Origin: Escherichia phage ECO340P2
Sequence record: OP172792
Direction: 5' to 3' (one strand)
DNA: 64,000 nucleotides
Below are positions 4,817 to 57,938 of the stretch, piece by piece. Numbering within the stretch: position 1 is the stretch's first letter; each line of letters begins with the position of its first letter. The notes beneath the pieces are model-generated. The model ran no database searches, was not told where the DNA came from, and saw only the letters and a program-made list of their open reading frames with translations. Position numbers and translations under genes: made by a program.

Positions 4817-4817
4817 A

Positions 4818-5102: not shown

Positions 5103-5123
5103 GATTTTTCTCTCTTCTTGTGA

Positions 5124-5462: not shown

Positions 5463-5472
5463 GGTGTGCACC

Positions 5473-5592: not shown

Positions 5593-5614
5593 CGTGTAAT
5601 CCTCTCGTTTGCTT

Positions 5615-5677
5615 TGGGAACTATTCCCGCCGCCCTATGAATTAAATATACACTATCTCAAAATGATTGCAAGCCTT
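5615..5677 (-). promoter_or_regulatory. early promoter (TTGCAA-N16-TATATT) + leader hairpin GGGAActaTTCCC
   Basis: read on minus strand. Confidence 0.5.
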
Positions 5678-5690
5678 TTTCTAAATTATT

Positions 5691-5975: not shown

Positions 5976-6005
5976 GATTGCATCCTCAAAGGGGCGCGGC
6001 ACCAT

Positions 6006-6060
6006 TGCCGCCCTACACGATAACTATAACACAATGTAAAACAGGGTCAACCTTTATTTT
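6006..6060 (-). promoter_or_regulatory. early promoter (TTGACC-N16-TATAGT) + leader hairpin
   Basis: read on minus strand. Confidence 0.55.
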
Positions 6061-6253
6061 TCCACGGTGTCAGCTTGTTAATCATTGGTGATAAATAGCG
6101 TTTACCAACGTAAAACAGTACGCCAACTGATGCAACGGCGGCGACCTCATGCATAGCCGACGGGAAACGGGTATCATAATAAGATCCAATAATAGCAATA
6201 GCGGCAACGGCTGCAACGTCGATAATGATTTTCTCTTGTTTTGCGGTGATCAT
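6047..6253 (-). CDS. small membrane protein
   Basis: hydrophobic segment AAVAAIAIIGSYY; RBS AAAAGG. Confidence 0.5.
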   Translation of the reverse strand: MITAKQEKIIIDVAAVAAIAIIGSYYDTRFPSAMHEVAAVASVGVLFYVGKRYLSPMINKLTPWKNKG

Positions 6254-6275
6254 AGTATTTACCTTTTTGTATGGT

Positions 6276-6332
6276 GGGGAACTATTCCCCGCCTGATGTA
6301 ATACAGTTTAACAGGTCCGGTTATGGTGTCAA
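6276..6332 (-). promoter_or_regulatory. early promoter + leader hairpin unit (GGGGAActaTTCCCC)
   Basis: TGTCAA 6327-6332. Confidence 0.55.
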
Positions 6333-6338
6333 CCACTT

Positions 6339-6524
6339 TTAAAGATATTTTATGCTAATGACGTTTTCAGGTTTTACCTTGTTATGATGTGCATCAACAT
6401 AGATCAAACCATCGTCAGAAAAGCCCAGGATCACGCCCTGCGCGATAAAACCGTACTCGTCACGGTAACGCACGGCTATTTTTAATGTTGCGTTGTAGGC
6501 TGTTTTAAGCTCGTTTAAAGTCAT
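6339..6524 (-). CDS. hypothetical small early protein
   Basis: ORF with GAGGATAAACAAAA RBS. Confidence 0.5.
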   Translation of the reverse strand: MTLNELKTAYNATLKIAVRYRDEYGFIAQGVILGFSDDGLIYVDAHHNKVKPENVISIKYL

Positions 6525-6543
6525 TTTTGTTTATCCTCTACAT

Positions 6544-6571
6544 GTAAAAAGAAAGGGCGCTTGATGCGCCC
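6544..6571 (-). terminator. intrinsic terminator/attenuator (GGGCGCatcaaGCGCCC + TTTCTTTTT) between two co-directional early genes
   Basis: GC stem plus T-run on minus strand. Confidence 0.55.
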
Positions 6572-6579
6572 TTGTTATG

Positions 6580-6726
6580 TTAATCCTCTAAATCCATCCA
6601 ATTATATTTGTCACTCTTCCCGCGCTTTGTTTTATTACGCTTGTCACCTTTGCGGATCACTTCCTCGTTCCAGGCCTTGCGGATCTTGGAAGATTGAATT
6701 TTTTCTGCGCGATTAGATGTATTCAT
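6580..6726 (-). CDS. small basic protein (48 aa)
   Basis: hand-translated ORF; Lys/Arg-rich. Confidence 0.4.
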   Translation of the reverse strand: MNTSNRAEKIQSSKIRKAWNEEVIRKGDKRNKTKRGKSDKYNWMDLED

Positions 6727-6746
6727 TTTGTTTCCTCTTTATATGA

Positions 6747-6799
6747 GCGGCACCATTGCCGCTATATTGTTAATTTAAACTGTTTTGTAAAATTGTCAA
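6747..6799 (-). promoter_or_regulatory. early promoter (TTGACA-N16-TAAATT) + leader hairpin
   Basis: read on minus strand. Confidence 0.6.
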
Positions 6800-6805
6800 G
6801 GTTTA

Positions 6806-7159
6806 TCATTCATAAGAGCAAGCAAGGATCACGCCTGCAATATAAAGCCAATAATTTTCCCTTTCTCGTTGGATTTTATCATCGCTGCTATTCTCTTTAA
6901 TGTATCCCCAGGATGTTAACAGGCGATCAATTTCCCAATATTCGAAAGCGATATTGATATCTGATGGCAAACCTTGTAACCATGATGCAAGTGCTTTAAC
7001 AATACTATAATTAAAACGTGATTGGTTATCAGGGTACCAGTACTCGGAATTAAAACGGCGCATCAATTCCGCGATCTTCTCTTTTTCGGTTGTAATACCA
7101 TAATCATTAAAATCGATAGCGGCAAGGATGTACTCTTTAATTGCATTTTGTGCTTTCAT
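6806..7159 (-). CDS. hypothetical early protein
   Basis: ORF with AAAGAGAGAAAGACC RBS. Confidence 0.55.
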   Translation of the reverse strand: MKAQNAIKEYILAAIDFNDYGITTEKEKIAELMRRFNSEYWYPDNQSRFNYSIVKALASWLQGLPSDINIAFEYWEIDRLLTSWGYIKENSSDDKIQRERENYWLYIAGVILACSYE

Positions 7160-7178
7160 GGTCTTTCTCTCTTTTTGA

Positions 7179-7235
7179 GCGGGAACTATTCCCGCCCTAC
7201 GTGTAACAGTTTACTGAAAATTAAATCCGTGTCAA
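7179..7235 (-). promoter_or_regulatory. early promoter (TTGACA-N16-TAAACT) + leader hairpin GCGGGAActaTTCCCGC
   Basis: read on minus strand. Confidence 0.6.
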
Positions 7236-7238
7236 GCT

Positions 7239-7460
7239 TTATTTTGTTACTACCATTTGGTACCCTGTTTCAATGTTAGTAAATACTGTTATCCCGTCCT
7301 GGCGTTCACTCATTAGCATACAAGGCGCTAACATCCTTTCTACTGCCTTGCACTCATTGTAAACGGCGGTTATGTCTCCTGCGGCCTTGTCTTCTGTGGT
7401 GAATGTATCGTTTACGTAAACCTGACCAGCGACAACGGTGACAATAGCGAAAGTGATCAT
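7239..7460 (-). CDS. hypothetical small early protein
   Basis: ORF; shares RBS and first 5 codons (MITFA) with gene 7535..7702. Confidence 0.5.
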   Translation of the reverse strand: MITFAIVTVVAGQVYVNDTFTTEDKAAGDITAVYNECKAVERMLAPCMLMSERQDGITVFTNIETGYQMVVTK

Positions 7461-7493
7461 GGTGTTTCCTTGTTAGTAGTGGTTTCTCTTCTC

Positions 7494-7532
7494 TATAGCG
7501 CCCATTGTAAGGCGCTATAACGAAAAGTCAAC
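7494..7532 (-). promoter_or_regulatory. promoter TTGACT-N16-TACAAT embedded in a hairpin (TATAGCGCC/GGCGCTATA)
   Basis: -10 lies in the loop of a 9-bp inverted repeat. Confidence 0.45.
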
Positions 7533-7534
7533 GA

Positions 7535-7702
7535 TTATTTTTTAAGGCTTAAAGTACCTAACTTGTCAGCATGACGCAGACCAGGGAAGATCCATTTGCC
7601 TGACTCATCTTTCACCGGGGCTTTAAGCGTAGCGCCCAGGTTGGCGGCGTTAACTTTACGTGCAACGTTGCGAGCGGCTTCACGGGTAGCGAAAGTGATC
7701 AT
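7535..7702 (-). CDS. hypothetical small early protein (55 aa)
   Basis: hand-translated ORF below track size cut-off. Confidence 0.4.
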   Translation of the reverse strand: MITFATREAARNVARKVNAANLGATLKAPVKDESGKWIFPGLRHADKLGTLSLKK

Positions 7703-7726
7703 GGTGTTTTCCTCTTCTCTTTGTTA

Positions 7727-7788
7727 GGCGGTGGACCATTCCGCCGCCTTGATGTAATACAGTTTACTTTATTTTATTAAGATTGCAA
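7727..7788 (-). promoter_or_regulatory. early promoter (TTGCAA) + variant leader hairpin
   Basis: same hairpin variant as 4756-4776. Confidence 0.5.
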
Positions 7789-7794
7789 GCGGTT

Positions 7795-8010
7795 TTATGA
7801 AATAATTGTCAAAGTAAAATCATAAGACTGATTTAATTTATATTGTACTTTATTGCCGTAGTAGTCACCTTTACGTAAAGATCCGCGAATACCTATCACA
7901 TCCTTTACATCTTTAAGACTTTTTACGCCTGTAATGTCTTTATTGAAATACTCGTCATCTGAAAATAAAACTTGACTTGCATTTTTTAACAGTGTGCGGA
8001 TATTAGCCAT
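7795..8010 (-). CDS. hypothetical small early protein
   Basis: track ORF trimmed to ATG 8010. Confidence 0.5.
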   Translation of the reverse strand: MANIRTLLKNASQVLFSDDEYFNKDITGVKSLKDVKDVIGIRGSLRKGDYYGNKVQYKLNQSYDFTLTIIS

Positions 8011-8031
8011 CGTGATAATCTCTCTTCTTGT

Positions 8032-8089
8032 TGGCGGCACCATTGCCGCCCTACGTAATACAGTTTACTCTTTTTCTTTCCAGTGTCAA
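8032..8089 (-). promoter_or_regulatory. early promoter (TTGACA-N16-TAAACT) + leader hairpin GGCGGCAccatTGCCGCC
   Basis: canonical copy. Confidence 0.65.
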
Positions 8090-8098
8090 CAATCTTTT

Positions 8099-8326
8099 TC
8101 AGATTATTTCATCCAGGCATAACAGGCGATCAACGTTGAGATCGGTTAGGCTGATGGTTGGCACCTGGTAGGATTCGATGTACTCAACACTAGCCCATTG
8201 CCCGAAATTAGCGACCGCCCAGCTATTCAAGGAAGATTGCAGATCATCCCCTTTCTTCTCGGTGATAACTGCTACTGTCTGGAAGTTGCCAACGGTGCCG
8301 GATACGCGAACAATAATGATAGCCAT
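8099..8326 (-). CDS. hypothetical small early protein
   Basis: ORF with AGAAGAGAGAAA RBS. Confidence 0.55.
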   Translation of the reverse strand: MAIIIVRVSGTVGNFQTVAVITEKKGDDLQSSLNSWAVANFGQWASVEYIESYQVPTISLTDLNVDRLLCLDEII

Positions 8327-8350
8327 GATGATTTCTCTCTTCTGTTAGGC

Positions 8351-8405
8351 GGGGCGCTTGTCGCCCCTATGTGATACATTTTACACTAATTTAAAACGTT
8401 GTCAA
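8351..8405 (-). promoter_or_regulatory. early promoter + leader hairpin GGGGCGcttgtCGCCCC
   Basis: TGTCAA 8400-8405. Confidence 0.55.
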
Positions 8406-8414
8406 CTGCTTTTA

Positions 8415-8654
8415 TTACATTCCAACCATTGCGGCGCGGATACTGGATTTACTGAACTTGTAACCGTCTGGCGTTTTATCTTGTCCAGTTTGTTCCAGAA
8501 ATAACATCATATGACGGGCTGCATCATTACGATTAGTATTAGCGTCGATAAACTCTTTCGCCAACCGATATAATGACTCATCGTTATTAATCCAAAGGCT
8601 TACATTCCAATGAGTTTTATTTTTGTGACCTAAGAACATTTTTGATTTAGCCAT
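8415..8654 (-). CDS. hypothetical early protein
   Basis: track ORF trimmed to ATG 8654 downstream of leader hairpin. Confidence 0.5.
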   Translation of the reverse strand: MAKSKMFLGHKNKTHWNVSLWINNDESLYRLAKEFIDANTNRNDAARHMMLFLEQTGQDKTPDGYKFSKSSIRAAMVGM

Positions 8655-8688
8655 GATGTTAATCTCTTTTTCAGTGAGGCGGGAACTA

Positions 8689-8747
8689 TTCCCGCTCTCG
8701 ATGTAAAACATTTTACGCTTTTTCTTTCTGTTGTCAATGCTTTTTAT
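8689..8747 (-). promoter_or_regulatory. early promoter + leader hairpin GCGGGAActaTTCCCGC
   Basis: TGTCAA 8742-8747. Confidence 0.55.
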
Positions 8748-9109
8748 AAATCTTTTTTACGTTTAACATCGCTTGCATGACTGTATACAGTGATCCCATT
8801 GTCACGGCAAAAACGGGAAAGATATGTGCCGCGTGAAAACTCCTTGCCTTCAAGGTTGATAACCTTGCTAAATTCTTCCAGGGCGACGGTATCAAAATGA
8901 TCACCATAACCATATTGAAACGGAACGTTAACCACTTGAATCAATTTACCGCCGATCTCAACGTCAACCATTAAAGAAAAATATGTGTTACCGTAGGACT
9001 GTTGAAACCAGCGACGGGCGCTAATATGCACCGCCTCAATGCTGGATAGTTCAATTTTAGCAGTATTAGCCAAGGTAGCATAAGCGGAAACATTGATATT
9101 AATAGCCAT
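8744..9109 (-). CDS. hypothetical early protein
   Basis: ORF with AAAAGG RBS. Confidence 0.55.
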   Translation of the reverse strand: MAININVSAYATLANTAKIELSSIEAVHISARRWFQQSYGNTYFSLMVDVEIGGKLIQVVNVPFQYGYGDHFDTVALEEFSKVINLEGKEFSRGTYLSRFCRDNGITVYSHASDVKRKKDL

Positions 9110-9129
9110 GATGATAACCTTTTATTGTT

Positions 9130-9186
9130 GGCGGCACCATTGCCGCCCTACGTGATAAACTATACCAGAATTTTAAATAGTGTCAA
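9130..9186 (-). promoter_or_regulatory. early promoter + leader hairpin GGCGGCAccatTGCCGCC
   Basis: TGTCAA 9181-9186. Confidence 0.65.
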
Positions 9187-9192
9187 ATGTTT

Positions 9193-9555
9193 TTATTCGT
9201 AAATTTTGCCGCTTTCTACCCATACCGTAACACGGCGCATATTATCCCAAGTGTCTTGATCCAAGTTTAAGCCGTGCAACTCTTCGGTACTTCCCAGACC
9301 AGGTACCGCCTTGTTGTAAGTTGCATATAAGCGCCCTTGATACTCATACGCCAGGGTGAGATCCGTTTGAATCATCTTTTTAAGCATAGCGTTAAGCATC
9401 ATATTAGCGGCATGTTGATCACGTTTTAGCGGTAACATGTCAATAAGGGCGCGATAAGCTGAAATATGAATATCAACCGTTTCACGTGGTAAATTTTTCA
9501 TATCATCGCGGAAAGATACCAGATTAAACATGATAGTATTGATTTGCTTGCTCAT
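9193..9555 (-). CDS. hypothetical early protein
   Basis: ORF with AAAAAGGG RBS. Confidence 0.55.
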   Translation of the reverse strand: MSKQINTIMFNLVSFRDDMKNLPRETVDIHISAYRALIDMLPLKRDQHAANMMLNAMLKKMIQTDLTLAYEYQGRLYATYNKAVPGLGSTEELHGLNLDQDTWDNMRRVTVWVESGKIYE

Positions 9556-9566
9556 TGTGTTACCCT

Positions 9567-9627
9567 TTTTTGTTTTGGCGGGGAAGTATTCCGCCGCCCT
9601 ATGTGATACATCTTATCAGATTAAAAA
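9567..9627 (-). promoter_or_regulatory. early promoter (TTGACA-N16-TAAGAT) + leader hairpin
   Basis: read on minus strand. Confidence 0.6.
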
Positions 9628-9658
9628 ACGTTGTCAAGAATATTTTTAAAAATAATTT

Positions 9659-9940
9659 TTAGCTATATGATCCGCACCGCTCGCAATAGTGATCATCGTC
9701 GTCATCTGCCACCTGGCTGATAAAGTGATCAACCTTCATTTTCAGGTTATTATAATTGTTTTCAACTTCTTTTAATCTTTCTTGGTAGTATTCCAGGGCT
9801 TCAACATATGCCGCCTCAGCCGTTTTTTCACGCATAGCTAAATTCATGCCGCGCGTATCATCGTACAGCCAAAAACCATCAGTGCATTCACTCATTGAAA
9901 GCGTAGGGCTTAACTCTTTATGACTAATTACCTTGCTCAT
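9659..9940 (-). CDS. hypothetical early protein (C-terminal CxxC)
   Basis: track ORF trimmed to ATG 9940. Confidence 0.45.
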   Translation of the reverse strand: MSKVISHKELSPTLSMSECTDGFWLYDDTRGMNLAMREKTAEAAYVEALEYYQERLKEVENNYNNLKMKVDHFISQVADDDDDHYCERCGSYS

Positions 9941-9950
9941 AGTGTGCGCC

Positions 9951-10055
9951 TTATAGAAGGATTGAAATAACAATTGCTACAGTGATCCACACTGGAACGG
10001 CTAGAATGATAGCGTTAATCGTTCCAACCGTCAAGCTATTTTCTTTATTAATCAT
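9951..10055 (-). CDS. small hydrophobic membrane peptide (34 aa)
   Basis: hand-translated ORF directly after leader hairpin. Confidence 0.4.
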   Translation of the reverse strand: MINKENSLTVGTINAIILAVPVWITVAIVISILL

Positions 10056-10084
10056 TGTAAACCTTTTATATAATTTCACTATGA

Positions 10085-10141
10085 GCGGCACCATTGCCGC
10101 CCTACGTGGTAAATATTATGCTAGTGGCGGCGATATGTCAA
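10085..10141 (-). promoter_or_regulatory. early promoter (TTGACA-N17-TAATAT) + leader hairpin
   Basis: read on minus strand. Confidence 0.6.
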
Positions 10142-10695
10142 AGGCTATTTTCAAAGTTTTCTAGCGCGATCCTTTTTTCTTCCTCTGTCGGCTGATAATC
10201 AGGAAAAGCATCAATACACAACAACGGCGGGATCTCTTCGTACTCTTCCTCTTCCGTTGTCTCCTCGTCTTCCTCCTGGGCTATGGCTGCAATTTTGGCT
10301 AATTTTCTTTCAGCTTGAATCAGTTTACCATCAAGTACATTTTTTGCCATGTTGTAAGCGGTCCAGGTGATGCGCTTATTTTCCAGGGCTTCATCAAGCG
10401 CCGCTATCTTGCTGGGATATTCATCAAGGACACGAAAAGCCGGATCAACCTTGTACAAAGGATTATCTTTCGCGCCGTCGCTAGGATCTTCCGCACTGGA
10501 TAAATCAGCGTTACCATTTGCCAGCCAACCAGGGCGCACATGACGCGCTTTTACGTTGCCGTTACTACGTGCTAACCTGTTACCTATTTGCTCACCACTA
10601 TAGCCCGTTGATTCATCGACAAGATGATCGGGAATGATGCGCGGATCATCTGCCTCATGCTTTACCCAAGACTGGATCACATATTCACGCCCCAT
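10138..10695 (-). CDS. hypothetical early protein with acidic stretch
   Basis: ORF; ATG 10695 with AAGGTGG RBS; EEDEETTEEEEYEE run. Confidence 0.55.
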   Translation of the reverse strand: MGREYVIQSWVKHEADDPRIIPDHLVDESTGYSGEQIGNRLARSNGNVKARHVRPGWLANGNADLSSAEDPSDGAKDNPLYKVDPAFRVLDEYPSKIAALDEALENKRITWTAYNMAKNVLDGKLIQAERKLAKIAAIAQEEDEETTEEEEYEEIPPLLCIDAFPDYQPTEEEKRIALENFENSL

Positions 10696-10696
10696 A

Positions 10697-10954
10697 TTAA
10701 CCACCTTTTTTCAACAATTGACATACTTTAAAAAGACTTGCGGAATCCTTGCAAGGGTAGAAAGATGTACGATAGTCACGTACGCCAACCTTGCGGATCT
10801 CGATGTTCTCGCATGTTGTTTGATCAAAGATATTTATTTCATCACGCCCCCTTATATAAACATAGTGAGGATGGATCAAAGCATACTTAGCTAATCTGTA
10901 AAAAGCGTTATCTTTGAACGCGATCACGTGACCTTTTAACTTGATGTAAAACAT
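10697..10954 (-). CDS. hypothetical early protein
   Basis: ORF with TAAGGTGA RBS. Confidence 0.55.
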   Translation of the reverse strand: MFYIKLKGHVIAFKDNAFYRLAKYALIHPHYVYIRGRDEINIFDQTTCENIEIRKVGVRDYRTSFYPCKDSASLFKVCQLLKKGG

Positions 10955-10978
10955 TTTGTCACCTTACAAATAGCGGGA

Positions 10979-11034
10979 ACTATTCCCGCCTTATGCAACA
11001 TATTAGTAAATTATTCGCTAATGTCAAGCCTTAA
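10979..11034 (-). promoter_or_regulatory. early promoter + leader hairpin GCGGGAActaTTCCCGC
   Basis: TGTCAA 11029-11034. Confidence 0.55.
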
Positions 11035-11303
11035 AGCAAAAATGCTACATCTTGCGCTTTTAGTGTAGTGTCAACCATTTTCGGGCTTTTATAATCAACA
11101 AACCGCGCGGTTTTTTCAATAGCGAAACCTAAATAATCTTGCTTGTTGAAATTACATTCTTTCTTAAATGTTTCCCGCGCCACGGCGATCGCTGCGTCCA
11201 GGGATAAACGACCATCAATATTAATATTAGCGAAAGATCCGCCACCGCTCATAGGTTTACCAGTGGTGCCAGTTACAATCATTGTTGCGCTATATGATGC
11301 CAT
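11031..11303 (-). CDS. hypothetical early protein
   Basis: ORF with AGAAGAGAGAAAAA RBS. Confidence 0.55.
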   Translation of the reverse strand: MASYSATMIVTGTTGKPMSGGGSFANINIDGRLSLDAAIAVARETFKKECNFNKQDYLGFAIEKTARFVDYKSPKMVDTTLKAQDVAFLL

Positions 11304-11326
11304 GATTTTTCTCTCTTCTGTTAGGC

Positions 11327-11382
11327 GGGGCGCTTGTCGCCCCTATGTGATACATCTTATCAGGTTGTTGCCTGTTGTCAAT
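11327..11382 (-). promoter_or_regulatory. early promoter + leader hairpin GGGGCGcttgtCGCCCC
   Basis: TGTCAA 11377-11382. Confidence 0.55.
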
Positions 11383-11387
11383 ACTTT

Positions 11388-11585
11388 TTATTCAAGCCCT
11401 ACGATATGCAAAACACGGCGATCAGCAATAGCGTGCTGGTCTTCTGTTATAACGCACATTTCTACCAGTGAATCAAGAAAGGAAAGCACAGTAATATATT
11501 CGTCATCGGGTACACTCATTTCATTAGTACCGTTTACCATTACGTTGATTTGTCCTGCTTTCGCTACAATGTGCAATGTTGCCAT
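11388..11585 (-). CDS. hypothetical small early protein
   Basis: ORF with GGAG RBS. Confidence 0.5.
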   Translation of the reverse strand: MATLHIVAKAGQINVMVNGTNEMSVPDDEYITVLSFLDSLVEMCVITEDQHAIADRRVLHIVGLE

Positions 11586-20183: not shown

Positions 20184-20392
20184 GTGGATGGATTAAAGTA
20201 TCTGGTACCGAGGATGTTCCTATCGGAGAGTGGCTTGTAATCATGGCAAACGGCAAGAAGGGATTCTGTGAAGTTAACAAAACACGCAATGGCACGATAG
20301 CTGTTATCAATGGTCATTTTTATTTTGACTTGGCACCTGTGATCGCATATCATGCACTACCAACATATGAAGAGGAGATTAACAATGGCTAA
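20180..20392 (+). CDS. hypothetical protein
   Basis: ORF, translationally coupled. Confidence 0.5.
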   Translation: MSGWIKVSGTEDVPIGEWLVIMANGKKGFCEVNKTRNGTIAVINGHFYFDLAPVIAYHALPTYEEEINNG

Positions 20393-47932: not shown

Positions 47933-47950
47933 GGGCTTCGGCCCTTTTAT
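47931..47950 (+). terminator. intrinsic terminator AAGGGCttcgGCCCTT + TTTATT
   Basis: GC stem, tetraloop, T-run. Confidence 0.65.
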
Positions 47951-47951
47951 T

Positions 47952-47980
47952 AAAATACCTGTTGACAACTGTGCGGAAGG
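47952..47980 (+). promoter_or_regulatory. promoter TTGACA-N17-TATACT
   Basis: near-consensus hexamers. Confidence 0.6.
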
Positions 47981-48023
47981 GATTTATACTTGTCTCATCA
48001 ACCAAACAAGAGGAGAAGTAAAA

Positions 48024-48464: not shown

Positions 48465-49259
48465 TTGAGCAAGTTGAACACACTTGATCAATATTACACT
48501 AACCCCGCTTATGCGGGGTTCTTATGTGATAAGATCAAAGAAATTTTTGGAGAGGAAGCTAACTACGTAGAACCATCTGCGGGAGAAGGAGCTTTCTCTT
48601 CTTGTTTTAAAAACATAACTTCTTTTGATATTGACCCTAAGTTTGAAGATTGTATTGAGGCAGATTTTTTAGCCCAATCTGTTGAGTCTGTTGGTAGTGT
48701 AACTGCTTTTGTCGGTAATCCTCCATTTGGAAAAAATGCTAGTCTTGCCATTAAATTCTTTAACCATTGTGCTGAAATGCTAGATAACGAAGGTGGTATT
48801 TGTTTTATCTTGCCTCGCACATTTCAAAAAATCTTTTTTGCACACAAACTAAATCCCCACATGCATCTTCTTTACGAAGAAGAATGTCCAAAAGGATCTT
48901 TTATTCTTCATGGAGAACCTTGGGATGTTCCTTGTGTATTCCAGATATGGATTAAACGCAACGAGAAGCGTTCTCCCGTTGTTTTAGGAGAAAATCGACT
49001 ATTTGTATTAGGCAACAGTAAAGACTACGACATAGCCGTTAGGAGAGCGGGAGCAAGTGCAGGTAAAGTGTTATCAGAAGAAGATTCTTTATCTGAAGCG
49101 TCTACCTATTTTTTAAAAGCCTTGACTTCTGATCTTAAAACGCGTATCATTGAGGCTTACCCGTTACTTAAAGCTGAAGCTAGTAAAACTGCGGGAGTAA
49201 GAAGTTTAAGTTTAAAAGAACTTCAGTGGGTTCTGGAGAACATTAGAAAGGAGGAATAG
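48465..49259 (+). CDS. DNA N6-adenine methyltransferase (orphan)
   Basis: QYYTNP, EPSAGEGAF (motif I), VGNPPFGK (motif IV); TTG start; no adjacent endonuclease. Confidence 0.7.
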   Translation: MSKLNTLDQYYTNPAYAGFLCDKIKEIFGEEANYVEPSAGEGAFSSCFKNITSFDIDPKFEDCIEADFLAQSVESVGSVTAFVGNPPFGKNASLAIKFFNHCAEMLDNEGGICFILPRTFQKIFFAHKLNPHMHLLYEEECPKGSFILHGEPWDVPCVFQIWIKRNEKRSPVVLGENRLFVLGNSKDYDIAVRRAGASAGKVLSEEDSLSEASTYFLKALTSDLKTRIIEAYPLLKAEASKTAGVRSLSLKELQWVLENIRKEE

Positions 49260-52200
49260 TGAGTAAGTTTACATGGGATATTGAAGCAAACGGATTGTTG
49301 AATAATGACACTATTGATTATTTGGCTAGTCCTTATCGTCTCAAAGACACATTTCAAATGCACTGTATTGTCTTAGAGAACCATGAAACAGGAGAAATAG
49401 TAGCTTTCCACGATGGCCCTAAATACATTTTTGATGGGCGTCCTTATGAAGAATCAGATGGTAAATACACGTATGTTCTTAAAGAGTATGTGGCGCAAGA
49501 TTACACACATTTTCAACTAAAAGATTTCCCAGACTTTATTAATCATGAAGGTTATTTTCAAGACAAGCCGGAATATCTGGTTGAAATGGCTGTGGCACAT
49601 AACGGTATCAACTACGACTGGTTGGCTACAAAACTGTTTTACGGATTGGATTACAGTGTTAAATATAATACATGGGGTAAAAGCAAGGTAAAACTTATTG
49701 ACTCCTTGATTTTGAGTAAAGTGTTGAACCCAGATCGAAAGATTGAGGGCAAATCAGGACATAGCTTGGCAGCACTTTCTCGAAAGGCAGGTGGTGATGT
49801 AAAAATAGATTTCCGTAAAGAGATTCCAGAAGAAGATCGATTTAAGACTTTTGCTGCGGATATGCTTTATTACTGTATCTATGACAACAAAGCCAATACG
49901 AGCGTATATAATTACCTTATGGAAGAATGGGGTGATTATGATAAATGGGAAGGTCCGTTTGAACTTGAACAACGTGTAGCAGACATTATTACACGCCAGG
50001 AACACCGTGGGTTTGCTTTTAACATGAAGCAAGCAGAAGAGAACCTTGCTTTTTTGGATGCCGAAATGGAGCGTCTTCGTTTACTCGTTGAGCCTATTTT
50101 GCCACCTAAGCCAGCAACAAAAGGTTATCTTAAGGCTTTTATCCCACCTAAGTTGCAAATTAAAAAGAACTTAGAACCAACTAACCATATGATCAATTTT
50201 GCTAAGAAACATGATGGTCATTTGGAAGAGAGAGATGGGGACTGGTGGTTAGTTATGTTGGGGAAAGAGTGGAAACTGCCAGTTGCAGCAGACGAACCTT
50301 TATGTGATCCTCATATCCCTGCAACATTGAATGATACAACCCATATTAAAAACTGGCTTGTAGGTTTAGGTTGGGTACCATCAGAATATAAAGATAAAGA
50401 CTTGACTCTTAAATCTGGCACCAAGATTAAAAAGAGTGAGGAAGAACTTCAGAAAGGTATTCGAGCTTACGTTGAGCAAACTCTATCTTCTAATTTTTGT
50501 CAGGATCGTTGTGATCACCTTGAGTGCACACCGGAAACCTTAGAAAGGAAAATTCAAGAGCGTATAGCAAAAGGTAAAGGTCGCGGTCTTAAAGTGTTGA
50601 CTAACCCATGTTTTACCAAAGGTCAGGAAAAAGAAATTTGTCCTAACCTGCAAGCTTTGGGTGAGAAATTTCCTTATGCTACACAGATTGTAGAATACTT
50701 AACGTATAAACATCGTAGGAACTCTATTTTAGGTGGTGGTGCTGATTGGGAAGAAGACGAAGAAGATCAAGAATACGATAAAGGTTTCTTAGCCGCAGTA
50801 AGGGCGGATGGTCGTATTCCTACCCCAGCCGCTACATGTGATGCTGCAACCTCTCGTATGAAGCATAGGTCTGTCGCTAATATTCCTCGTGTTACATCTT
50901 TGTTTGGATGGGAGATGCGTAACCTGTTTGGTGTGGAGGTTCCTAAATACTTCCAGATCGGCTACGACTTCGACTCTTTGGAAGCAAAAATTGAATCACA
51001 CTACTGTGTGCCGATGGATGCTCAAGCTTTGACTCGTAAAGGTTGGGTAGGATATCACGACCTGAAGGAAGGGGATGAGATTTTAGGGTACAATGCTGAA
51101 ACAGGTCTGAAAGAATGGACTAAAGTAAAAGGTAAGGTCTTCTATAAAAATAGTAAGACGTTTGAGATTAAAGGGAAATCACACACTTACCGTGCAACAG
51201 CAGATCACCGTTGGTATGTTAATACCCGTAGTAAAGGGAATACTTATGTGCCTAAAGTCAGAACAACTGCCGAGCTTTGCACAGGAGATAACATTATTTG
51301 TAATGCTCCATTTAATATGGAACAAGATCAGGTAAATAGTTTAACTTCTGTTCAACAAGGTAAATGGGATGTTCCGTGGGTAGAACGTGTAGTTAATATG
51401 TCTCATGCCGAGCGTGTAGCTTTCTTGGAAGGTTTCTTGATTGCAGATGGTTACTGGCACGAACATAAACAAAAACCTGTTTGGCGTTGGGCGCAGAACC
51501 CAGGTGAACTTTTTGAAGCAGCTTTAACTGCCTCGTACCTGGTGCATGGAGGCAATATCTCTGTAGCTTTCAATACAAAAGAGCAGAAAGTAAAAGTGGC
51601 AACATTGACTAACCGCTCTCACATTCCTGTTCAAAGTTTGACTATTGAAGAGTGGGGTGTAGAGGATGTTTGGTGTCCACAAACAGAACTTGGTACGTGG
51701 GTCATGCGTCAGAAAGACTGCATTACCATCACAGGAAACTGTTGGCGGTACGAGCCGGAGCCACACGAGTATTGTAACGCTCTGTTGTTAGAGAAACCTA
51801 ATGATGTTCACACAATGATGGCAAAACGTATCACTGAAACTATCGGACGTAAATTTGAACGTAGTCCTGCTAAATCTGTTAAGTATGGTATTACCTATGG
51901 TGCACAAGCCGACAAGGTTGCTAAAACAATTGGTAGCGATAAGTTTACAGGTCAATTAGTGTTTGATGCTTTCTGGGAAGCTGCATTCCCATTGGCGCGT
52001 CTTAAAGAACGTTTAAACGATTTCTGGGTTAAGACTGGTAAACAATATGTTTTGGGTATTGACGGTCGTAAGGTTCCTACTCGTTCTGCTCACGCGATTC
52101 TTAACTCTCTGTTCCAAAGTGGTGGGGTTATCTGTGCTAAACGTGCAATGGTTATTTATGACGACATGATCGAAGAAGAAGGACTAAGTGTTGACTTCTT

Positions 52201-52591
52201 TAAAGATGACTGGAAGAATAAAGACTTCGTGCAACAAATGATTGCATATCACGATGAAGCCCAGCTTGAAGTTTCTCGTAACCTTGTAGAATTTAAATGG
52301 TTTTCACCTGAATCATTAGGTTGGAAGAAAGTAGACGATCCTGAAGAACAAAAGAAAATTGATAAAGAATGCCTTGCTAAAGTTGAAGAATGGAAGCATA
52401 ATAAGGAAAAAGAGACGGGACAAATTTGGGCTAACATTCATGAATCTCCCAAAGGTGGATGGTTTACAGCCTATAGTCGGGCAGGTGAACTTGCTGCCTT
52501 AGCTGTTACTAAGGCTGGAGAATTTTACAATCTTAATGTTCAGCTTACTGCCGGATATGATGTGGGTAATTCTTGGGCGTCCTGTCACTGA
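49259..52591 (+). CDS. family A DNA polymerase with 3'-5' exonuclease domain, interrupted by putative intein
   Basis: Exo I FTWDIEANGL; motif A-like GYDFDSLEAKI; motif B-like RSPAKSVKYGITYGAQ; 245-aa insertion between them; GTG start. Confidence 0.75.
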   Translation: MSKFTWDIEANGLLNNDTIDYLASPYRLKDTFQMHCIVLENHETGEIVAFHDGPKYIFDGRPYEESDGKYTYVLKEYVAQDYTHFQLKDFPDFINHEGYFQDKPEYLVEMAVAHNGINYDWLATKLFYGLDYSVKYNTWGKSKVKLIDSLILSKVLNPDRKIEGKSGHSLAALSRKAGGDVKIDFRKEIPEEDRFKTFAADMLYYCIYDNKANTSVYNYLMEEWGDYDKWEGPFELEQRVADIITRQEHRGFAFNMKQAEENLAFLDAEMERLRLLVEPILPPKPATKGYLKAFIPPKLQIKKNLEPTNHMINFAKKHDGHLEERDGDWWLVMLGKEWKLPVAADEPLCDPHIPATLNDTTHIKNWLVGLGWVPSEYKDKDLTLKSGTKIKKSEEELQKGIRAYVEQTLSSNFCQDRCDHLECTPETLERKIQERIAKGKGRGLKVLTNPCFTKGQEKEICPNLQALGEKFPYATQIVEYLTYKHRRNSILGGGADWEEDEEDQEYDKGFLAAVRADGRIPTPAATCDAATSRMKHRSVANIPRVTSLFGWEMRNLFGVEVPKYFQIGYDFDSLEAKIESHYCVPMDAQALTRKGWVGYHDLKEGDEILGYNAETGLKEWTKVKGKVFYKNSKTFEIKGKSHTYRATADHRWYVNTRSKGNTYVPKVRTTAELCTGDNIICNAPFNMEQDQVNSLTSVQQGKWDVPWVERVVNMSHAERVAFLEGFLIADGYWHEHKQKPVWRWAQNPGELFEAALTASYLVHGGNISVAFNTKEQKVKVATLTNRSHIPVQSLTIEEWGVEDVWCPQTELGTWVMRQKDCITITGNCWRYEPEPHEYCNALLLEKPNDVHTMMAKRITETIGRKFERSPAKSVKYGITYGAQADKVAKTIGSDKFTGQLVFDAFWEAAFPLARLKERLNDFWVKTGKQYVLGIDGRKVPTRSAHAILNSLFQSGGVICAKRAMVIYDDMIEEEGLSVDFFKDDWKNKDFVQQMIAYHDEAQLEVSRNLVEFKWFSPESLGWKKVDDPEEQKKIDKECLAKVEEWKHNKEKETGQIWANIHESPKGGWFTAYSRAGELAALAVTKAGEFYNLNVQLTAGYDVGNSWASCH
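51005..51739 (+). mobile_element. putative intein (245 aa) with LAGLIDADG-like motif inside the polymerase
   Basis: begins with Cys after motif A, TADH block, LEGFLIADGYW, ends ..ITGN followed by Cys; removal restores normal A-to-B spacing. Confidence 0.5.
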
Positions 52592-53009: not shown

Positions 53010-53228
53010 ATGCGTAAATTAGTGAGCTTTAATGTTTCAATTCTTGTTGATGAACAAAATGAAGATGTTATTAAAGGTCTTGCAAATAAGATTGCAGGTG
53101 GAATGACGGAAGCTGAAGTGTGGGAAGAATGTGCTCGACTTTATGAGGAAGGTGTTATTGAGGTCTTAGGGGATGAGATTAATATGGACGATGTTGTAAA
53201 AGTAACTGTGGAGCGTATCAATGACTAA
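53010..53228 (+). CDS. hypothetical small protein
   Basis: ORF with AAGGAG RBS. Confidence 0.5.
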   Translation: MRKLVSFNVSILVDEQNEDVIKGLANKIAGGMTEAEVWEECARLYEEGVIEVLGDEINMDDVVKVTVERIND

Positions 53229-53814
53229 ATCAAAACAAATCAATATTGCCAAAGAAATTCTTACCATATTAAAGATCGCTGATCCTAATTCTGTCTTGGC
53301 TGGCGGTGCTGTTCGTGATTGGCGTATTCTTGATATTGCTGGACGTGATCTGGATTTCTATACATCCCTTCCTGCACATCGGACTGAAGAACAAATACAA
53401 GGATTAATTGCATCTGCTTTAATGGGAACCAATATTCGTAAACTAGGAAACAAAGAGGCTTCTGACAATTATGAAGGTGTTACTGGTCTTAAACACGTTT
53501 TTGAGTTTGAACGTGATGGTCAGCTTTGCAACCTTATGATTATGGAACCAAGCGTAATGACAACCTTTCTAAATGAGTTCGATCTGTCCATCTGCCAGGC
53601 TGCATTTGATGGGAAGGACTGTTATTATTCTAAAGATTTTGAAACAACCTTGGAAACAGGGATCTGCTTCTTGCACAAAGATGTTAGAGAAGATGCCAAA
53701 CATGTTATTAAAATTGCTACACGTTTCCCATATCTTCGTTTTGTGAAAGAGGTTAAGGTTCCACGTCCACCTCAAGTAGATACCAGATTGGAAGAAGATG
53801 ATATTCCTTGGTAA
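53221..53814 (+). CDS. minimal nucleotidyltransferase of CCA-adding/poly(A) polymerase head-domain type
   Basis: LAGGAVRDWRILDIAGRDLDFY matches GGxVRD...D.D signature; only 197 aa. Confidence 0.5.
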   Translation: MTKSKQINIAKEILTILKIADPNSVLAGGAVRDWRILDIAGRDLDFYTSLPAHRTEEQIQGLIASALMGTNIRKLGNKEASDNYEGVTGLKHVFEFERDGQLCNLMIMEPSVMTTFLNEFDLSICQAAFDGKDCYYSKDFETTLETGICFLHKDVREDAKHVIKIATRFPYLRFVKEVKVPRPPQVDTRLEEDDIPW

Positions 53815-53821: not shown

Positions 53822-53851
53822 TTGACAATATTAAACATTTTATGATAGGAT
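53822..53851 (+). promoter_or_regulatory. promoter TTGACA-N18-TAGGAT
   Basis: hexamers read directly; ATG of next gene about 9 nt after -10. Confidence 0.45.
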
Positions 53852-53859
53852 AGCATTCA

Positions 53860-54252
53860 ATGACTGAACGTTCTAAGATAGCTGTTGAAACTGTTTATGG
53901 AAACTATACCAGTTTGACACTAGTTGAGAAAAATGTTGTAGGTCTTGACAACTCTTTTTATTTTCAAATTTTGGTTATTCAAGGTGGAAACAAGAAGCTA
54001 ACTGCTCGTGTCGAAACATCTGAAATAATTGAAACCACTGTTACAAACAAAGAATTCATTTCACTGCAAGATACAATCCGAAACGTTATAGACGAAGAAG
54101 GCAAAGCTGCCACAATTAAACTCGGAGGTTTCCCAGTGCAAATAGTTCATTTTCCTAATGGTGAAATTGGAGTTGGAATAGGTAAAGGTAAATACCTGTT
54201 AGAGCAAGATGATATGGAAAGACTCCGCTCTTTCTGTGCAAAATTAATGTAA
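53860..54252 (+). CDS. hypothetical protein
   Basis: ORF; no obvious RBS. Confidence 0.5.
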   Translation: MTERSKIAVETVYGNYTSLTLVEKNVVGLDNSFYFQILVIQGGNKKLTARVETSEIIETTVTNKEFISLQDTIRNVIDEEGKAATIKLGGFPVQIVHFPNGEIGVGIGKGKYLLEQDDMERLRSFCAKLM

Positions 54253-54268: not shown

Positions 54269-55201
54269 ATGTCCGTAATTAATACTGAAACTGATCGTAA
54301 AGGCAAAACCGTAACTTATGCAACTGGTATCGTAGACTACGTTAAACTGGATAAATTCGCTGAACCTAAAACTTTCCATTGGGAAGGAAAAACGATTGTT
54401 TCAACTCACCGAGCTTCTCTTGTTCTGAAAGAGAAAGGTGCTAAACCAGATGAGAAAGGTGTTTGGATTTCTCTTGGTGACATTGAACTGAAAGAAGGTT
54501 ATGAAAACCTGCAAGTCAAAGAAGGTGATAATTGGATCACTATTGAAAAAGGTGTAGAAGTAAGTATTGATATTGATCGCGTTGATAATAAAGGCGGTAA
54601 AACTTACTACAATACTAAAAAATCTCGTATTACAGTATTGTCTACCGAGGGTGTTCAGAAGTCTAACAAATCTTCTGGCAATAAAGGTTCCAACGATGCT
54701 GCTCCTAAGCAATCCTATAAAAAACGTGATACTGTAGGTCTGGAAACTGGTCACGCAGTAAATGGTGCACTGGAACTGATTCGTAATGGTGTTAAAGGCG
54801 ATGCTTTCGATATCGCTGGGGTTGTTCAATCTGCAACTGTCACGCTGAAATCGGAAATTGCTGAATCTCGTGGCGTTGATATTAATGATTATGATCTTGG
54901 GGCATCTGTTGGTCACGCTATCCTCAATGCTTGTAAAGACCATACCATTAAGACTGTATCTGTAGAAGATTTGATTGACTCTGCTCGTAAAGTTCTAGCT
55001 TTGTCTGATAAAGTTGCTGCTGCCATTCGTGGTTCCGTAGAACAACCTAAGAAAGAAGAGAAGAAAGAAGTTAAAAAGCCTGAACCACAACCAGAACCAA
55101 CTCCAAGCAATCAAGAAGAACCTCCAATGGACTTCGATGATGATATTCCATTTGCTCCTATTGGACTGCAATATGGTCGAAACTTCCTGCATTGCTTCTA
55201 A
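54269..55201 (+). CDS. SSB-like protein with acidic DDDIPF motif
   Basis: C-terminal region PMDFDDDIPF resembles SSB acidic tail, followed by 15 more residues. Confidence 0.45.
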   Translation: MSVINTETDRKGKTVTYATGIVDYVKLDKFAEPKTFHWEGKTIVSTHRASLVLKEKGAKPDEKGVWISLGDIELKEGYENLQVKEGDNWITIEKGVEVSIDIDRVDNKGGKTYYNTKKSRITVLSTEGVQKSNKSSGNKGSNDAAPKQSYKKRDTVGLETGHAVNGALELIRNGVKGDAFDIAGVVQSATVTLKSEIAESRGVDINDYDLGASVGHAILNACKDHTIKTVSVEDLIDSARKVLALSDKVAAAIRGSVEQPKKEEKKEVKKPEPQPEPTPSNQEEPPMDFDDDIPFAPIGLQYGRNFLHCF

Positions 55202-55235
55202 GGTTTGTTTCAAGTGCGTGAGGTTGAATGCTGAA

Positions 55236-55267
55236 TAAAAGAAAGGAGCCAAATGGCTCCTTTTCTT
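55236..55267. terminator. bidirectional terminator GGAGCCaaatGGCTCC between convergent operons
   Basis: 6-bp stem with T-runs on both strands. Confidence 0.7.
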
Positions 55268-57938
55268 ATTTATAACCCGAAGGAATATTATTATAATCAG
55301 AAAGTTTTGTGCAATACCTGAATAGGTAACTATTAGCTACTCCGCCTAATGTATTTGTTAATGTTGTTCCTGTTCCTGTAAGATTTGTGCATCCACTAAA
55401 GAAAGAAGATAATGCTCCACGTTTACCACAAACAGTTAACCCTGGGTTGTCATTAAAGATTTTATTAAAATCTGTAAGTGCTAAACAACCTTGGAATGTA
55501 GCTGTTAAAGAGGTCACTTTCGTTGGAATATTATCAAACATTCCTGCTGGAACTTCTGCAAGAGAGGTGCAATCTTTAAAGGTGTAAGAATATCTTGTAA
55601 CTTTTGATAGATTCTTAAATAAATCTGAAGGAATAGATGTTAAAGATGTACAACCTTCAAACGTGCTTGACATTGTTGTCATTGAAGGAAATAAAGCATC
55701 ACTGAATAATCCTTCAGGGATAGCTGTCAAACTTGTGCAGCCAGAGAAGATACCGCTTATAGATGTTCCGGTGTAAGATGTGTTACTAAAACAATCAGAA
55801 GTTATTCGTCTTAAGTTAGCACAACCTTTTAAGAATTGTGAGGCTGGGCTTGTAGAATAACCAATTCTGTTGCCGCCCCATAATTCTAAAAGATTTGGAT
55901 TTGCTTCCATAGACACATCAACACTATTCACTACTGAAGCACTTGCAAATTCAATAGCCAGTCTATATTCTCCTGCTGGATAACTATCCACTGTAGAGAA
56001 AGCTTTATTTCTAAATATTACTTTATTTGAAGGTATTACAACGTCATCCACTTTAACTACAAAGTTAGCTGGTGTGACAGTACCCGATAAAATTGGGAAC
56101 GTAATTGCCCCATCTGCCGAGTGGTTGAAATATCCGTTTAGAACCGTTAAACTACTACTCGGAGATGGAGCTAACTCCTTTCCCGCAACAGCATTCACCG
56201 TTAAATAAGAACTATCGGAAGCGGTAACAACACCTTGATACGTAGCTGTGCAACCAATCCTACAACCACCATCACCAACACCAGTTATTACACCAGTTGT
56301 AGGATCTACTGTAGCAACACTAGAATCTGTAGTTGTATATTCAACAACCATGCCAGGTAAGCTTGCTGCCCCTGTTGGCGTTATTTCTGCTACCATTGTT
56401 TGTGTTGTTCCTACATCCATCGCAGATAAGCTAGGGGTGTAAACACTCAATGTTGAAGCATATCCTCCAGAGGTATCTGATAAAGTTGTTCCTTCAGCGT
56501 TTAAGGCTGTCATACCTGCATCAAAACCACCTTCTGCATGGAAAGTCATTAAACCAGTAGATGATATTGTCATGTTTGCAGGGGCAGAAGAAGTGTATTT
56601 AATATTGAAAAGTTTACCTCCTTCTGGGCTAACAGAATGTGTCAACTGTTTAGTTCCACCTACAATACAAACTCCTAAAGAATCTGTAGTTAAGCTAGTT
56701 GCCAGCACATCTCCCGTAATCACAGAGCTTGCTATCGGTGTGAATTTATTATAATTTAGACCACTGTTGAACAGATACGAGGCTTTCCCATCTTTCCAAA
56801 TACCGGAATAATACATATCCCCGTTATAAACGAAAAAGGTTCCTTGATAACCTAATTGGTTAGTAATATCCATATTCAGCGTATGAACGCTTGTGAGCTT
56901 GTTTATATCCCAAGAACCCACTCCTTCAGGTTTAACTGGTTTTCCCACTTGGAGTGGATCTCCGCTCGCAGAATCATACCCCAAACCTAAGTTTGCAGTG
57001 TAGTTCTTACCAATAGCCCACAAGGAATTGTTGATCCCAACGAAAAAAGAGTGGCGGCTTGGTGGAAATTTCCATGTTGAGAAACCTGCTGCAAAGGTAT
57101 CCAGTTTAGTGTAGGTTGTTTCTGTATTAGACCTGACATATAAGTAGTTTACCGTGCCCGTACCACCAGAGGTGTCTCCTACAACTATTGTCTGGGAAAC
57201 TGTATTGATGTAATCTTTGACATACACTGTTTCAGTAGTGGATATCGTGGCATTGACAAAAGCGGTTGTTGTGTTATTATTACCTGCTAAACCTTTACTA
57301 GCTCCACAAACACGCAAGGTTCCCACATTGTTGACATAAGAGCATTGGTTGTAACCTGCATCAAAAGCAACTGCTGAACTTGTTATCTGACGAGGAGTAG
57401 AAACTTCGTTAGTAGTGCTTGCACCTAAACTACCTACTGTGTTTTGACCCGATCCATAAAGAACACCGCTATTCATTAACCAGAGAGTATTGTTATACCC
57501 TCCTTTAACCTCTTTAAGATTGGCTAAAGAAATAGTCCCTGTTATTACAGATGGAAAGCTGGTCCAAGTAGTTACACATGCATCCGTACCACCTGCTGCT
57601 ATAGATCCTACCAACCCTGCTGTCAATCCTGAATATTGCCATCCCCCACTGTTAGTTTTAATAACAAAACAACGATCTGCGGTAAACACATCCGCTACTA
57701 CAGTAGAAGCTAAGTGGAAATTATTGAATCGTGCACTACGAGTTCCATCTGCAATCTCACCAAAGAGGTTTGCGCCTTGAGTAAACAATCTACCATCATT
57801 AAGCAAAATTGCTAAACTGTTGTTAGAATTACCAGCGTTATCTGGGTAATCTAAAGTGATTACTTTTTTAACAATACCTGCTGGCAGAGGAACGACACCA
57901 GTGCTGGTCATAATAGTAAATATTGGAATTGGAAACAT
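55266..57938 (-). CDS. tail fibre / receptor-binding protein with C-terminal BspA-type leucine-rich repeats
   Basis: repeats F.GCTSLT.IP..LF near C-terminus; Gly/Thr/Ser-rich body. Confidence 0.5.
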   Translation of the reverse strand: MFPIPIFTIMTSTGVVPLPAGIVKKVITLDYPDNAGNSNNSLAILLNDGRLFTQGANLFGEIADGTRSARFNNFHLASTVVADVFTADRCFVIKTNSGGWQYSGLTAGLVGSIAAGGTDACVTTWTSFPSVITGTISLANLKEVKGGYNNTLWLMNSGVLYGSGQNTVGSLGASTTNEVSTPRQITSSAVAFDAGYNQCSYVNNVGTLRVCGASKGLAGNNNTTTAFVNATISTTETVYVKDYINTVSQTIVVGDTSGGTGTVNYLYVRSNTETTYTKLDTFAAGFSTWKFPPSRHSFFVGINNSLWAIGKNYTANLGLGYDSASGDPLQVGKPVKPEGVGSWDINKLTSVHTLNMDITNQLGYQGTFFVYNGDMYYSGIWKDGKASYLFNSGLNYNKFTPIASSVITGDVLATSLTTDSLGVCIVGGTKQLTHSVSPEGGKLFNIKYTSSAPANMTISSTGLMTFHAEGGFDAGMTALNAEGTTLSDTSGGYASTLSVYTPSLSAMDVGTTQTMVAEITPTGAASLPGMVVEYTTTDSSVATVDPTTGVITGVGDGGCRIGCTATYQGVVTASDSSYLTVNAVAGKELAPSPSSSLTVLNGYFNHSADGAITFPILSGTVTPANFVVKVDDVVIPSNKVIFRNKAFSTVDSYPAGEYRLAIEFASASVVNSVDVSMEANPNLLELWGGNRIGYSTSPASQFLKGCANLRRITSDCFSNTSYTGTSISGIFSGCTSLTAIPEGLFSDALFPSMTTMSSTFEGCTSLTSIPSDLFKNLSKVTRYSYTFKDCTSLAEVPAGMFDNIPTKVTSLTATFQGCLALTDFNKIFNDNPGLTVCGKRGALSSFFSGCTNLTGTGTTLTNTLGGVANSYLFRYCTKLSDYNNIPSGYK

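Follow-up and report, generated by a model that had tools for sequence, protein, structure and literature searches.

A probable sigma-70 promoter whose -10 element overlaps a Shine-Dalgarno sequence in the replication module of a phAPEC8-like coliphage

The window, by which is meant the whole 64,000-nucleotide stretch of Escherichia phage ECO340P2 (record OP172792) that was analysed, is that of a phAPEC8-like coliphage of the genus Phapecoctavirus, subfamily Stephanstirmvirinae. The region around the locus described here is 97-100% identical to phAPEC8-like coliphages, with 99.3% identity to Mt1B1_P17 over 2.1 kb and 100% identity to phAPEC8 over 601 nt. The locus is housed in the replication module, whose plus-strand genes run from DNA polymerase through three small ORFs and a nucleotidyltransferase to a hypothetical protein of 130 amino acids and a protein annotated as single-stranded DNA-binding protein (SSB); convergent tail genes stand after the latter. 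The gap between the nucleotidyltransferase gene and the gene for the 130-aa protein is 45 nt in the window, and 45-55 nt can be given as its general range. The features of the locus and of the transcription unit around it are collected in Table 1.

Several other features of this region vary among its relatives. The DNA polymerase I ORF (49259-52591) specifies 1110 aa in the window and in vB_Ec-G1 and 865 aa in Mt1B1_P17. The difference corresponds to an inserted segment of about 245 aa whose junctions look intein-like (…HYC/VPMD… and …TGN/C…), and a Pfam search at E <= 0.001 detected no intein domain in this ORF. In Mt1B1_P17 (L001, 5061-5468) and some relatives, an additional endonuclease gene separates the SSB gene from the tail gene. 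It is missing from the window (corresponding site about 55201-55266), which amounts to a presence/absence polymorphism of a probable homing endonuclease. Certain records not named after Escherichia also fall near the Phapecoctavirus coliphages here. Campylobacter phage B15 (MG065650), Acinetobacter phage ABPW7 (OP562383) and Klebsiella phage ZCKP1 (MH252123) are 97-100% identical to the window in this region; Pseudomonas phage PsgM04F (OR584014) is only 74% identical, yet it groups with the lineage of coliphage phiWec179. Mislabelled hosts or contaminant isolates are possible explanations for these four records.

The 130-aa protein belongs to a PHROG of unknown function (phrog_16560), and a Pfam search returned nothing for it, for the nucleotidyltransferase or for the SSB-annotated protein. 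Searches for distant homologues of the 130-aa protein in a phage collection, IMG/VR, metagenomes and a set of 5.8 billion proteins all returned members of the same subfamily only, so that the comparison is confined to this subfamily. A confident AlphaFold2 model based on 15 homologues (pLDDT 89, pTM 0.82) displays two beta4-alpha repeats, the first of which has a short extra strand (residues 57-61). The top Foldseek matches were to PUR-alpha, with probabilities of 0.87-1.00 and E-values of 2e-3 to 3e-2, but with TM-scores of only 0.32-0.40. Judged from this model, a Whirly/PUR-like fold that binds single-stranded nucleic acid, encoded beside the SSB gene, is plausible; the position next to that gene in the replication module is the sole pointer to the putative binding of single-stranded nucleic acid. 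In the SSB-annotated protein itself, the match to SSB families is limited to the last 45 or so residues. The protein has a DFDDDIPF motif followed by 15 further residues (APIGLQYGRNFLHCF). Motifs of the DFDDDIPF type form the usual C-terminal tail of bacterial SSB.

The gap in front of the 130-aa gene contains a -35 hexamer that matches the consensus at every position and, after a spacer of 18 nt, a -10 hexamer. The 3' part of the spacer carries the TG of an extended -10 element, and the resulting TG-A-TAGGAT agrees with TATAAT at four of six positions, A2 and T6 being present. Eight nucleotides (AGCATTCA) separate the -10 hexamer from the ATG (53860-62), the A of which is the ninth base past the -10. 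Direct reading and a consensus scan thus bear out the geometry given in the first-pass annotation, which had placed the ATG about 9 nt after the -10. Alternative -10 elements for the same -35, at spacers of 13-17 nt, were rejected, TATGAT at 13 nt being too close and the rest non-matching; the same applies in relatives. The features by which a sigma-70 extended -10 promoter is recognised, namely a -35 hexamer, TGn plus a -10 hexamer at 16-18 nt and conserved contact positions, are all found here, and the extended -10 gives the promoter a constitutive look. The element is likely to be an operon-internal promoter of the host sigma-70 type, packed into the 45-nt gap. Because the gap is so short, the -10 overlaps the core of the Shine-Dalgarno (SD) sequence, AGGA. 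In general, fitting a promoter of 30 nt into a gap of 45-55 nt in a densely packed genome causes the -10 to end no more than about 10 nt from the start codon and the SD to overlap or abut it; the odd geometry is the expected outcome of squeezing a promoter into the 45-nt gap.

The ATG at 53860 is the start codon of the 130-aa gene: a TAG in the same frame at 53851-53 closes off any longer ORF, no further methionine occurs before residue 118, and homologues share the N-terminal residues. The TTG in frame at codon 19 was rejected as a start, because it lacks an SD and is preceded by conserved residues. The gene had been described in the first-pass annotation as having no ribosome-binding site, a statement that survives only as a comment on strength. 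AGGA stands 9 nt upstream of the ATG, and its bases are annotated as a ribosome_binding_site in the GenBank record of ESCO13; its predicted duplex with the anti-SD, at -4.0 kcal/mol, is the weakest among 42 annotated plus-strand genes scored between 27962 and 54269 (starts mapped from the vB_Ec-G1 annotation), the others ranging from -5.9 to -13.4 kcal/mol. An SD core of at least 4 nt is found in front of every one of these 42 genes. The AGGA is located 5' of the promoter's own predicted start and is usable only on transcripts begun upstream; the 130-aa gene does possess an SD that serves it, which is missing only from RNA initiated at this promoter. RNA folding predicts that the ORF begins with 11 unpaired nt; structure in this 5' part is weak, does not differ from that of shuffled sequences and does not discriminate between SD-led and leaderless translation.

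Table 1. Features of the locus and of the surrounding transcription unit (window coordinates)
Feature	Position	Strand	Basis or remark
GGGC-UUCG-GCCC hairpin plus T run, preceding the upstream promoter	47933-47951		directly after the primase/helicase gene
Upstream operon promoter, TTGACA-17-TATACT	47962..47990	+	33-nt leader with GAGGAG
Nucleotidyltransferase gene	53221-53814	+	
-35 hexamer TTGACA (6/6 consensus)	53822..53827	+	direct reading and consensus scan
TG of the extended -10 element (TGn)	53843..53844	+	direct reading and scan
-10 hexamer TAGGAT	53846..53851	+	direct reading and scan
SD core AGGA, embedded in the -10 hexamer	53847..53850	+	9 nt before the ATG
Predicted start window, positions 7-9 after the -10 (C53858, A53859, A53860)	53858..53860	+	inferred from the rule in PMC5730371
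Gene for the 130-aa protein (phrog_16560, no Pfam match)	53860..54252	+	homologues 35-100% identical, same gene order
Gene annotated as single-stranded DNA-binding protein (SSB)	54269..55201	+	strong SD GAGGAG, 6-nt spacing
Bidirectional intrinsic terminator, 10-bp stem, T runs on both strands	55241..55264		closes the unit

The terminator-promoter pair at 47933-47990 marks the start of the transcription unit that holds the 130-aa gene. Between 47990 and 53822, no convincing plus-strand terminator was found, the three short-stem matches in this interval being no more than shuffled sequences give. The 45-nt gap of the window likewise has no hairpin (-3.2 kcal/mol, no better than shuffles). Since no convincing terminator intervenes between the 47962 promoter and the 130-aa gene, read-through RNA that includes the AGGA is to be expected, and the 47962 promoter is its probable source.

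The strict extended -10 pattern TTGACW-N13-15-TGnTAnnAT matches the window nine times, as against 0.19 +/- 0.39 times in shuffled sequences (a 47-fold enrichment), and no shuffle attained nine matches. Six of the other eight sites stand in front of gene blocks; those at 17230 and 57253 do not obviously do so. The latter site (57253-57280, plus strand, TTGACA-16-TG-T-TATTAT) lies antisense inside a minus-strand tail protein gene (55266-57938), and could be either an antisense promoter or a single chance match of the sort allowed by the shuffles.

Conservation of the element was assessed on the homologous gap as gathered from public phage records, IMG/VR, metagenomes and Logan assemblies. The sigma-70 contact positions are invariant in at least nine diverged lineages of Stephanstirmvirinae. 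In 11 aligned lineages, the encoded protein is only about 50-85% identical to that of the window, and the invariant columns are TTGAC, TG, TA and AT, together with one T of the spacer and the last two bases of the start codon. The spacer and the flanks drift freely while all sigma-70 contact positions stay invariant; the sixth base of the -35 is A or T across lineages. Among 64 close relatives, a 70-nt segment is 100% identical in 62. The motif is present even in Klebsiella phage 05F01 (TTGACT-17-TGaTAATAT), in which the protein is 35% identical. Judged from these patterns the promoter is very probably real, and conservation and enrichment together set aside the alternative, raised in the first-pass annotation, that the promoter call is wrong.

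A loose promoter match is by itself no proof, because such matches are equally common in shuffled sequence: generic promoter-like matches numbered 6 against 8.0 in one scan of this AT-rich DNA and 59 against 47.4 in another. This lack of excess lends some credit to the view that TTGACA/TAGGAT is a chance match, that TAGGAT is merely an SD and that all transcription comes from upstream, and the same view is favoured by the four-of-six match of TAGGAT, by a spacer whose 18 nt exceed the optimum and by gene callers, which treat bases of TAGGAT as a ribosome-binding site. It is nevertheless highly improbable in light of the 47-fold enrichment of the strict pattern and of the fact that the invariant columns are exactly the sigma-70 contacts, including a -35 and a TG that have no SD role. 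Sister lineages, moreover, keep a -10 (TATTAT, TAATAT, TAGTAT or TACTAT) and an SD (GAGGA) as separate elements, both of them conserved. Even less credence is given to the idea that the motif is primarily some other signal resembling a sigma-70 promoter, such as a terminator, an RNA-processing hairpin or a site for a phage regulator. This idea draws on the Klebsiella-type and metagenomic lineages, in which the -35 lies inside a GGGGTT-GACA-AACCCC hairpin with a T-rich run after it. The window lacks this hairpin and phi92 has only a weak one (-3.2 and -5.6 kcal/mol, neither better than in shuffled sequences), and TTGAC, TG and TA..AT are conserved even there; furthermore, the TG and the -10 lie outside the hairpin. 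The hairpin is a terminator-like element that overlaps the promoter in the Klebsiella-type and metagenomic lineages.

A hairpin around the -35 was seen in L006 (1385-1425), L021, L022, L023, L027 and L028. In the three lineages folded (L006, L018 and L021), its energy is -12 to -15 kcal/mol, and an A/G change preserves pairing as a G-U wobble.

Relatives differ in how far the -10 stands from the start codon. In the window, in L024 (85% protein identity) and in the phiWec179 group, TAGGAT is followed after 8 nt by ATG. In L025 (70% identity), the same hexamer is followed by ATG after 7 nt, so that the A of ATG, with a T in front of it, occupies position 8 and would make an ideal start. Justusliebigvirus (phi92, arall) and most Klebsiella-type and metagenomic lineages combine TATTAT, TAATAT, TAGTAT or TACTAT with a 10-nt interval, an invariant GAGGACTTGA that provides a separate SD, and an ATG; the A of this ATG falls at position 11, out of start-site range. 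L014 and L022 have TACTAT, a 10-nt interval (GAGGACTTAA) and GTG instead of ATG. In Klebsiella phage 05F01, the distance is -2 nt, as the -10 (TAATAT) overlaps the ATG, and the predicted RNA start lies inside the ORF of the 130-aa homologue. In the sister lineages, the GAGGA is invariant and stands 5 nt before the start, and the equivalent GAGG is annotated as a ribosome-binding site in phi92. Throughout the Phapecoctavirus-like clade, which comprises four TAGGAT sublineages, the -10 has GG at positions 3-4; elsewhere these positions are TT, GT, AT or CT. The GG may be kept for SD function in the TAGGAT clade; the pattern, being drawn from four lineages, is only suggestive and statistically not compelling.

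Promoter-to-start spacing among the relatives, which would be constant for a leaderless gene, is therefore 7, 8, 10 or -2 nt. The conserved features are thus a promoter together with an SD at working distance, not a 5'-terminal AUG. Because the -10 lies 7, 10 or -2 nt from the start in sister lineages, with GTG once in place of ATG, leaderless translation does not appear to be the conserved purpose of the promoter. A leaderless or near-leaderless RNA would be geometrically permitted in the TAGGAT clade only.

A search of the literature found no transcript 5' ends or RNA-seq for Phapecoctavirus, Justusliebigvirus or other Stephanstirmvirinae, and the start site was predicted from rules established in E. 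coli. In this host, transcription most often begins 7 bp after the -10, within a range of 6-9 bp, and prefers a purine preceded by a pyrimidine (PMC5730371). Usage amounts to 8%, 55% and 29% for positions 6, 7 and 8, with a Boltzmann prediction of 4% for position 9, and initiation seldom occurs more than 2 bp past position 7 (PMC5730371). By these rules, the best prediction is A53859, which offers a pyrimidine-purine step and would yield an RNA with a 1-nt leader (5'-AAUG), and RNAs with leaders of 0 and 2 nt are predicted as minor species. Initiation at A53860 would produce a truly leaderless RNA, position 9 being allowed and not favoured. A single extra 5' nucleotide is reported to inhibit leaderless initiation in E. 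coli, in which AUG is by far the best leaderless start codon and GTG a poor one (PMC8459731). An ATG is the start codon here and in all lineages of the TAGGAT clade. The proposal that the transcript may be leaderless therefore stands in part: the promoter RNA is predicted to have a leader of 0-2 nt, but an SD core is also present, and the variable distance from -10 to start and the one GTG lineage do not fit selection for a 5'-terminal AUG. A transcription start well upstream, which had been named as the observation that would refute the proposal, is not exclusive of it, as an upstream start and a promoter start are both expected.

The favoured reading, to which a probability of roughly 0.6 is assigned, is that two classes of mRNA cover the 130-aa gene, that the promoter chiefly boosts SSB and that leaderless expression of the 130-aa protein is a minor by-product. 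RNA of the first class, begun at the promoter near 47962, would carry the AGGA and would support weak SD-led initiation on the 130-aa gene, which would be translated chiefly from this read-through RNA. RNA of the second class would begin at 53858-53860 with a leader of 0-2 nt and no SD, and would span the 130-aa and SSB genes as far as the terminator at 55241-64. On such RNA, the SSB gene would be translated normally via its own strong SD, and the 130-aa gene only by leaderless-type 70S initiation, if at all; any leaderless expression would be a minor side-product, possible in the TAGGAT clade only. The conserved role of the promoter would then most likely be to supply more transcript of the distal genes, SSB in particular. 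A boost of SSB is supported by the position of the SSB gene, which comes next and has the SD GAGGAG, and by the strong terminator that closes the two-gene unit. In 05F01, the RNA start falls inside the first gene and therefore only the SSB gene could be served. That the promoter is most plausibly "for SSB" is an argument from geometry. The model builds on sequence anatomy, conservation, enrichment, relative SD strength and the lack of an upstream terminator; where transcription starts, whether and in what proportion the two RNA classes occur, and how efficiently they are translated are inferred.

Certain features sit less comfortably with this model. The SD is the weakest of 42, as would be expected were SD-led initiation not the main route, and in the Phapecoctavirus-like clade the A of ATG is always at position 8 or 9, no start codon other than ATG is used and the ORF begins with an unstructured stretch. 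L025 has ideal geometry for a leaderless start, and the features of the clade are compatible with genuine leaderless expression. In addition, the terminator-like hairpin at the -35 of the Klebsiella-type lineages would, if efficient, make the gene dependent on promoter-initiated RNA. Such observations are the substance of the competing proposal that the 130-aa protein comes mainly from RNA starting at A53860, translated by 70S ribosomes without an SD, and that the AGGA is incidental. Conservation of the promoter, the placement of the A within the 6-9 range both here (position 9) and in L025 (position 8, after T), the ATG shared by all four TAGGAT sublineages and the unpaired first 11 nt of the ORF all accord with this proposal. 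It is nonetheless considered unlikely. The best-fitting start, A53859, would leave a 1-nt leader, and one extra nucleotide is inhibitory in E. coli (PMC8459731); starts at position 9 are a small minority, the predicted 4% being an average over sequences (PMC5730371). Read-through RNA with the AGGA at canonical spacing is expected, and the GG kept at -10 positions 3-4 in four sublineages hints at SD use, though only suggestively. In sister lineages, for their part, the -10 and the start are 10 nt apart, the gene begins with GTG, or the -10 and the ATG overlap. A further reading assigns TAGGAT a dual use in phAPEC8-like phages, as the -10 in DNA and as the SD in read-through RNA, and holds that SD-led and truly leaderless isoforms coexist, the latter being usefully translated in infected E. 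coli, so that the phage could shift the ratio of the putative Whirly/PUR-like protein to SSB during infection. That, too, is a doubtful prospect.

Under the favoured model, the closest known analogue of the arrangement at the 130-aa gene is lambda cI. The cI gene is expressed as a leaderless RNA from PRM and as a leadered RNA from PRE, and its leaderless start at the A of the AUG has been proven experimentally. PRM is regulated by CI and Cro, and the leaderless cI RNA is translated less efficiently. In both systems, in the present one by prediction, one ORF is served by two promoters, the distal of which gives a leadered, SD-translated RNA and the proximal an RNA that begins at or next to the AUG. 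In contrast to cI, the start at the present promoter is a predicted one and is most likely 1 nt upstream of the AUG; also, the promoter is a seemingly constitutive one in the replication operon of a lytic myovirus, with its -10 overlapping the SD.

T4 gene 32, an SSB gene boosted by operon-internal promoters, is transcribed both by read-through and from its own promoters. The present locus is similar in that an abundant replication protein would gain transcription from a promoter within a longer unit; it differs in that the promoter lies one gene upstream of SSB, and the intervening gene loses its SD on the promoter RNA. In Deinococcus-Thermus, -10 regions adjacent to ORFs are described as a route to leaderless mRNA (PMC12340547). 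The likeness consists in a -10 box with only a few bases between it and the start codon, but there the arrangement is a genome-wide habit, in phyla with efficient leaderless translation. It is a single case here, in an E. coli phage in which all other genes carry SDs.

The promoter at 53822 is indeed the only strong one of the window that lies less than 10 nt from a start codon, and is an exception and not the habit of the phage. All other strong promoters of the window are followed by a leader of 30 nt or more (roughly 30-55 nt for those with a clear start codon) and a separate SD. A second case, at 20325-20354, in which a -10 and an ATG seem to overlap, is probably an artefact of the way the ORF was chosen. 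In rV5, 33 promoters have been predicted, 11 of them with an extended -10 (PMC3606486). The predicted promoters of rV5-like and phAPEC8-like phages share the consensus and the host polymerase of the promoter described here.

A further group of promoters in the window consists of about 20 repeated cassettes on the minus strand at about 2200-11400 (for example, at 11381, 9637, 9186, 8405, 7235, 6332, 3576 and 2267), with one plus-strand copy at 33529. Each cassette contains a strong sigma-70 promoter (TTGACA-N16/17-TAAnAT) and, directly after it, a conserved GC-rich hairpin (GTATCACRTAGGGCGGCAATGGTGCCGCC and variants), which is followed at a distance of about 45-55 nt by the ATG of a small early ORF. 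These cassettes resemble the promoter-stem-loop cassettes of T4-type phages.

In the dozen or so public records examined, the conserved internal promoter, which defines a two-gene unit for the putative Whirly/PUR-like protein and SSB, is unannotated. The practical value of the finding is one of annotation, in a phage group that finds wide use in therapy and biocontrol. Should the 130-aa gene prove to be translated from leaderless RNA, a lytic coliphage would join the very few known sources of natural leaderless mRNAs in E. coli, and the locus would provide a neat case of one hexamer that acts as both a -10 element and an SD.
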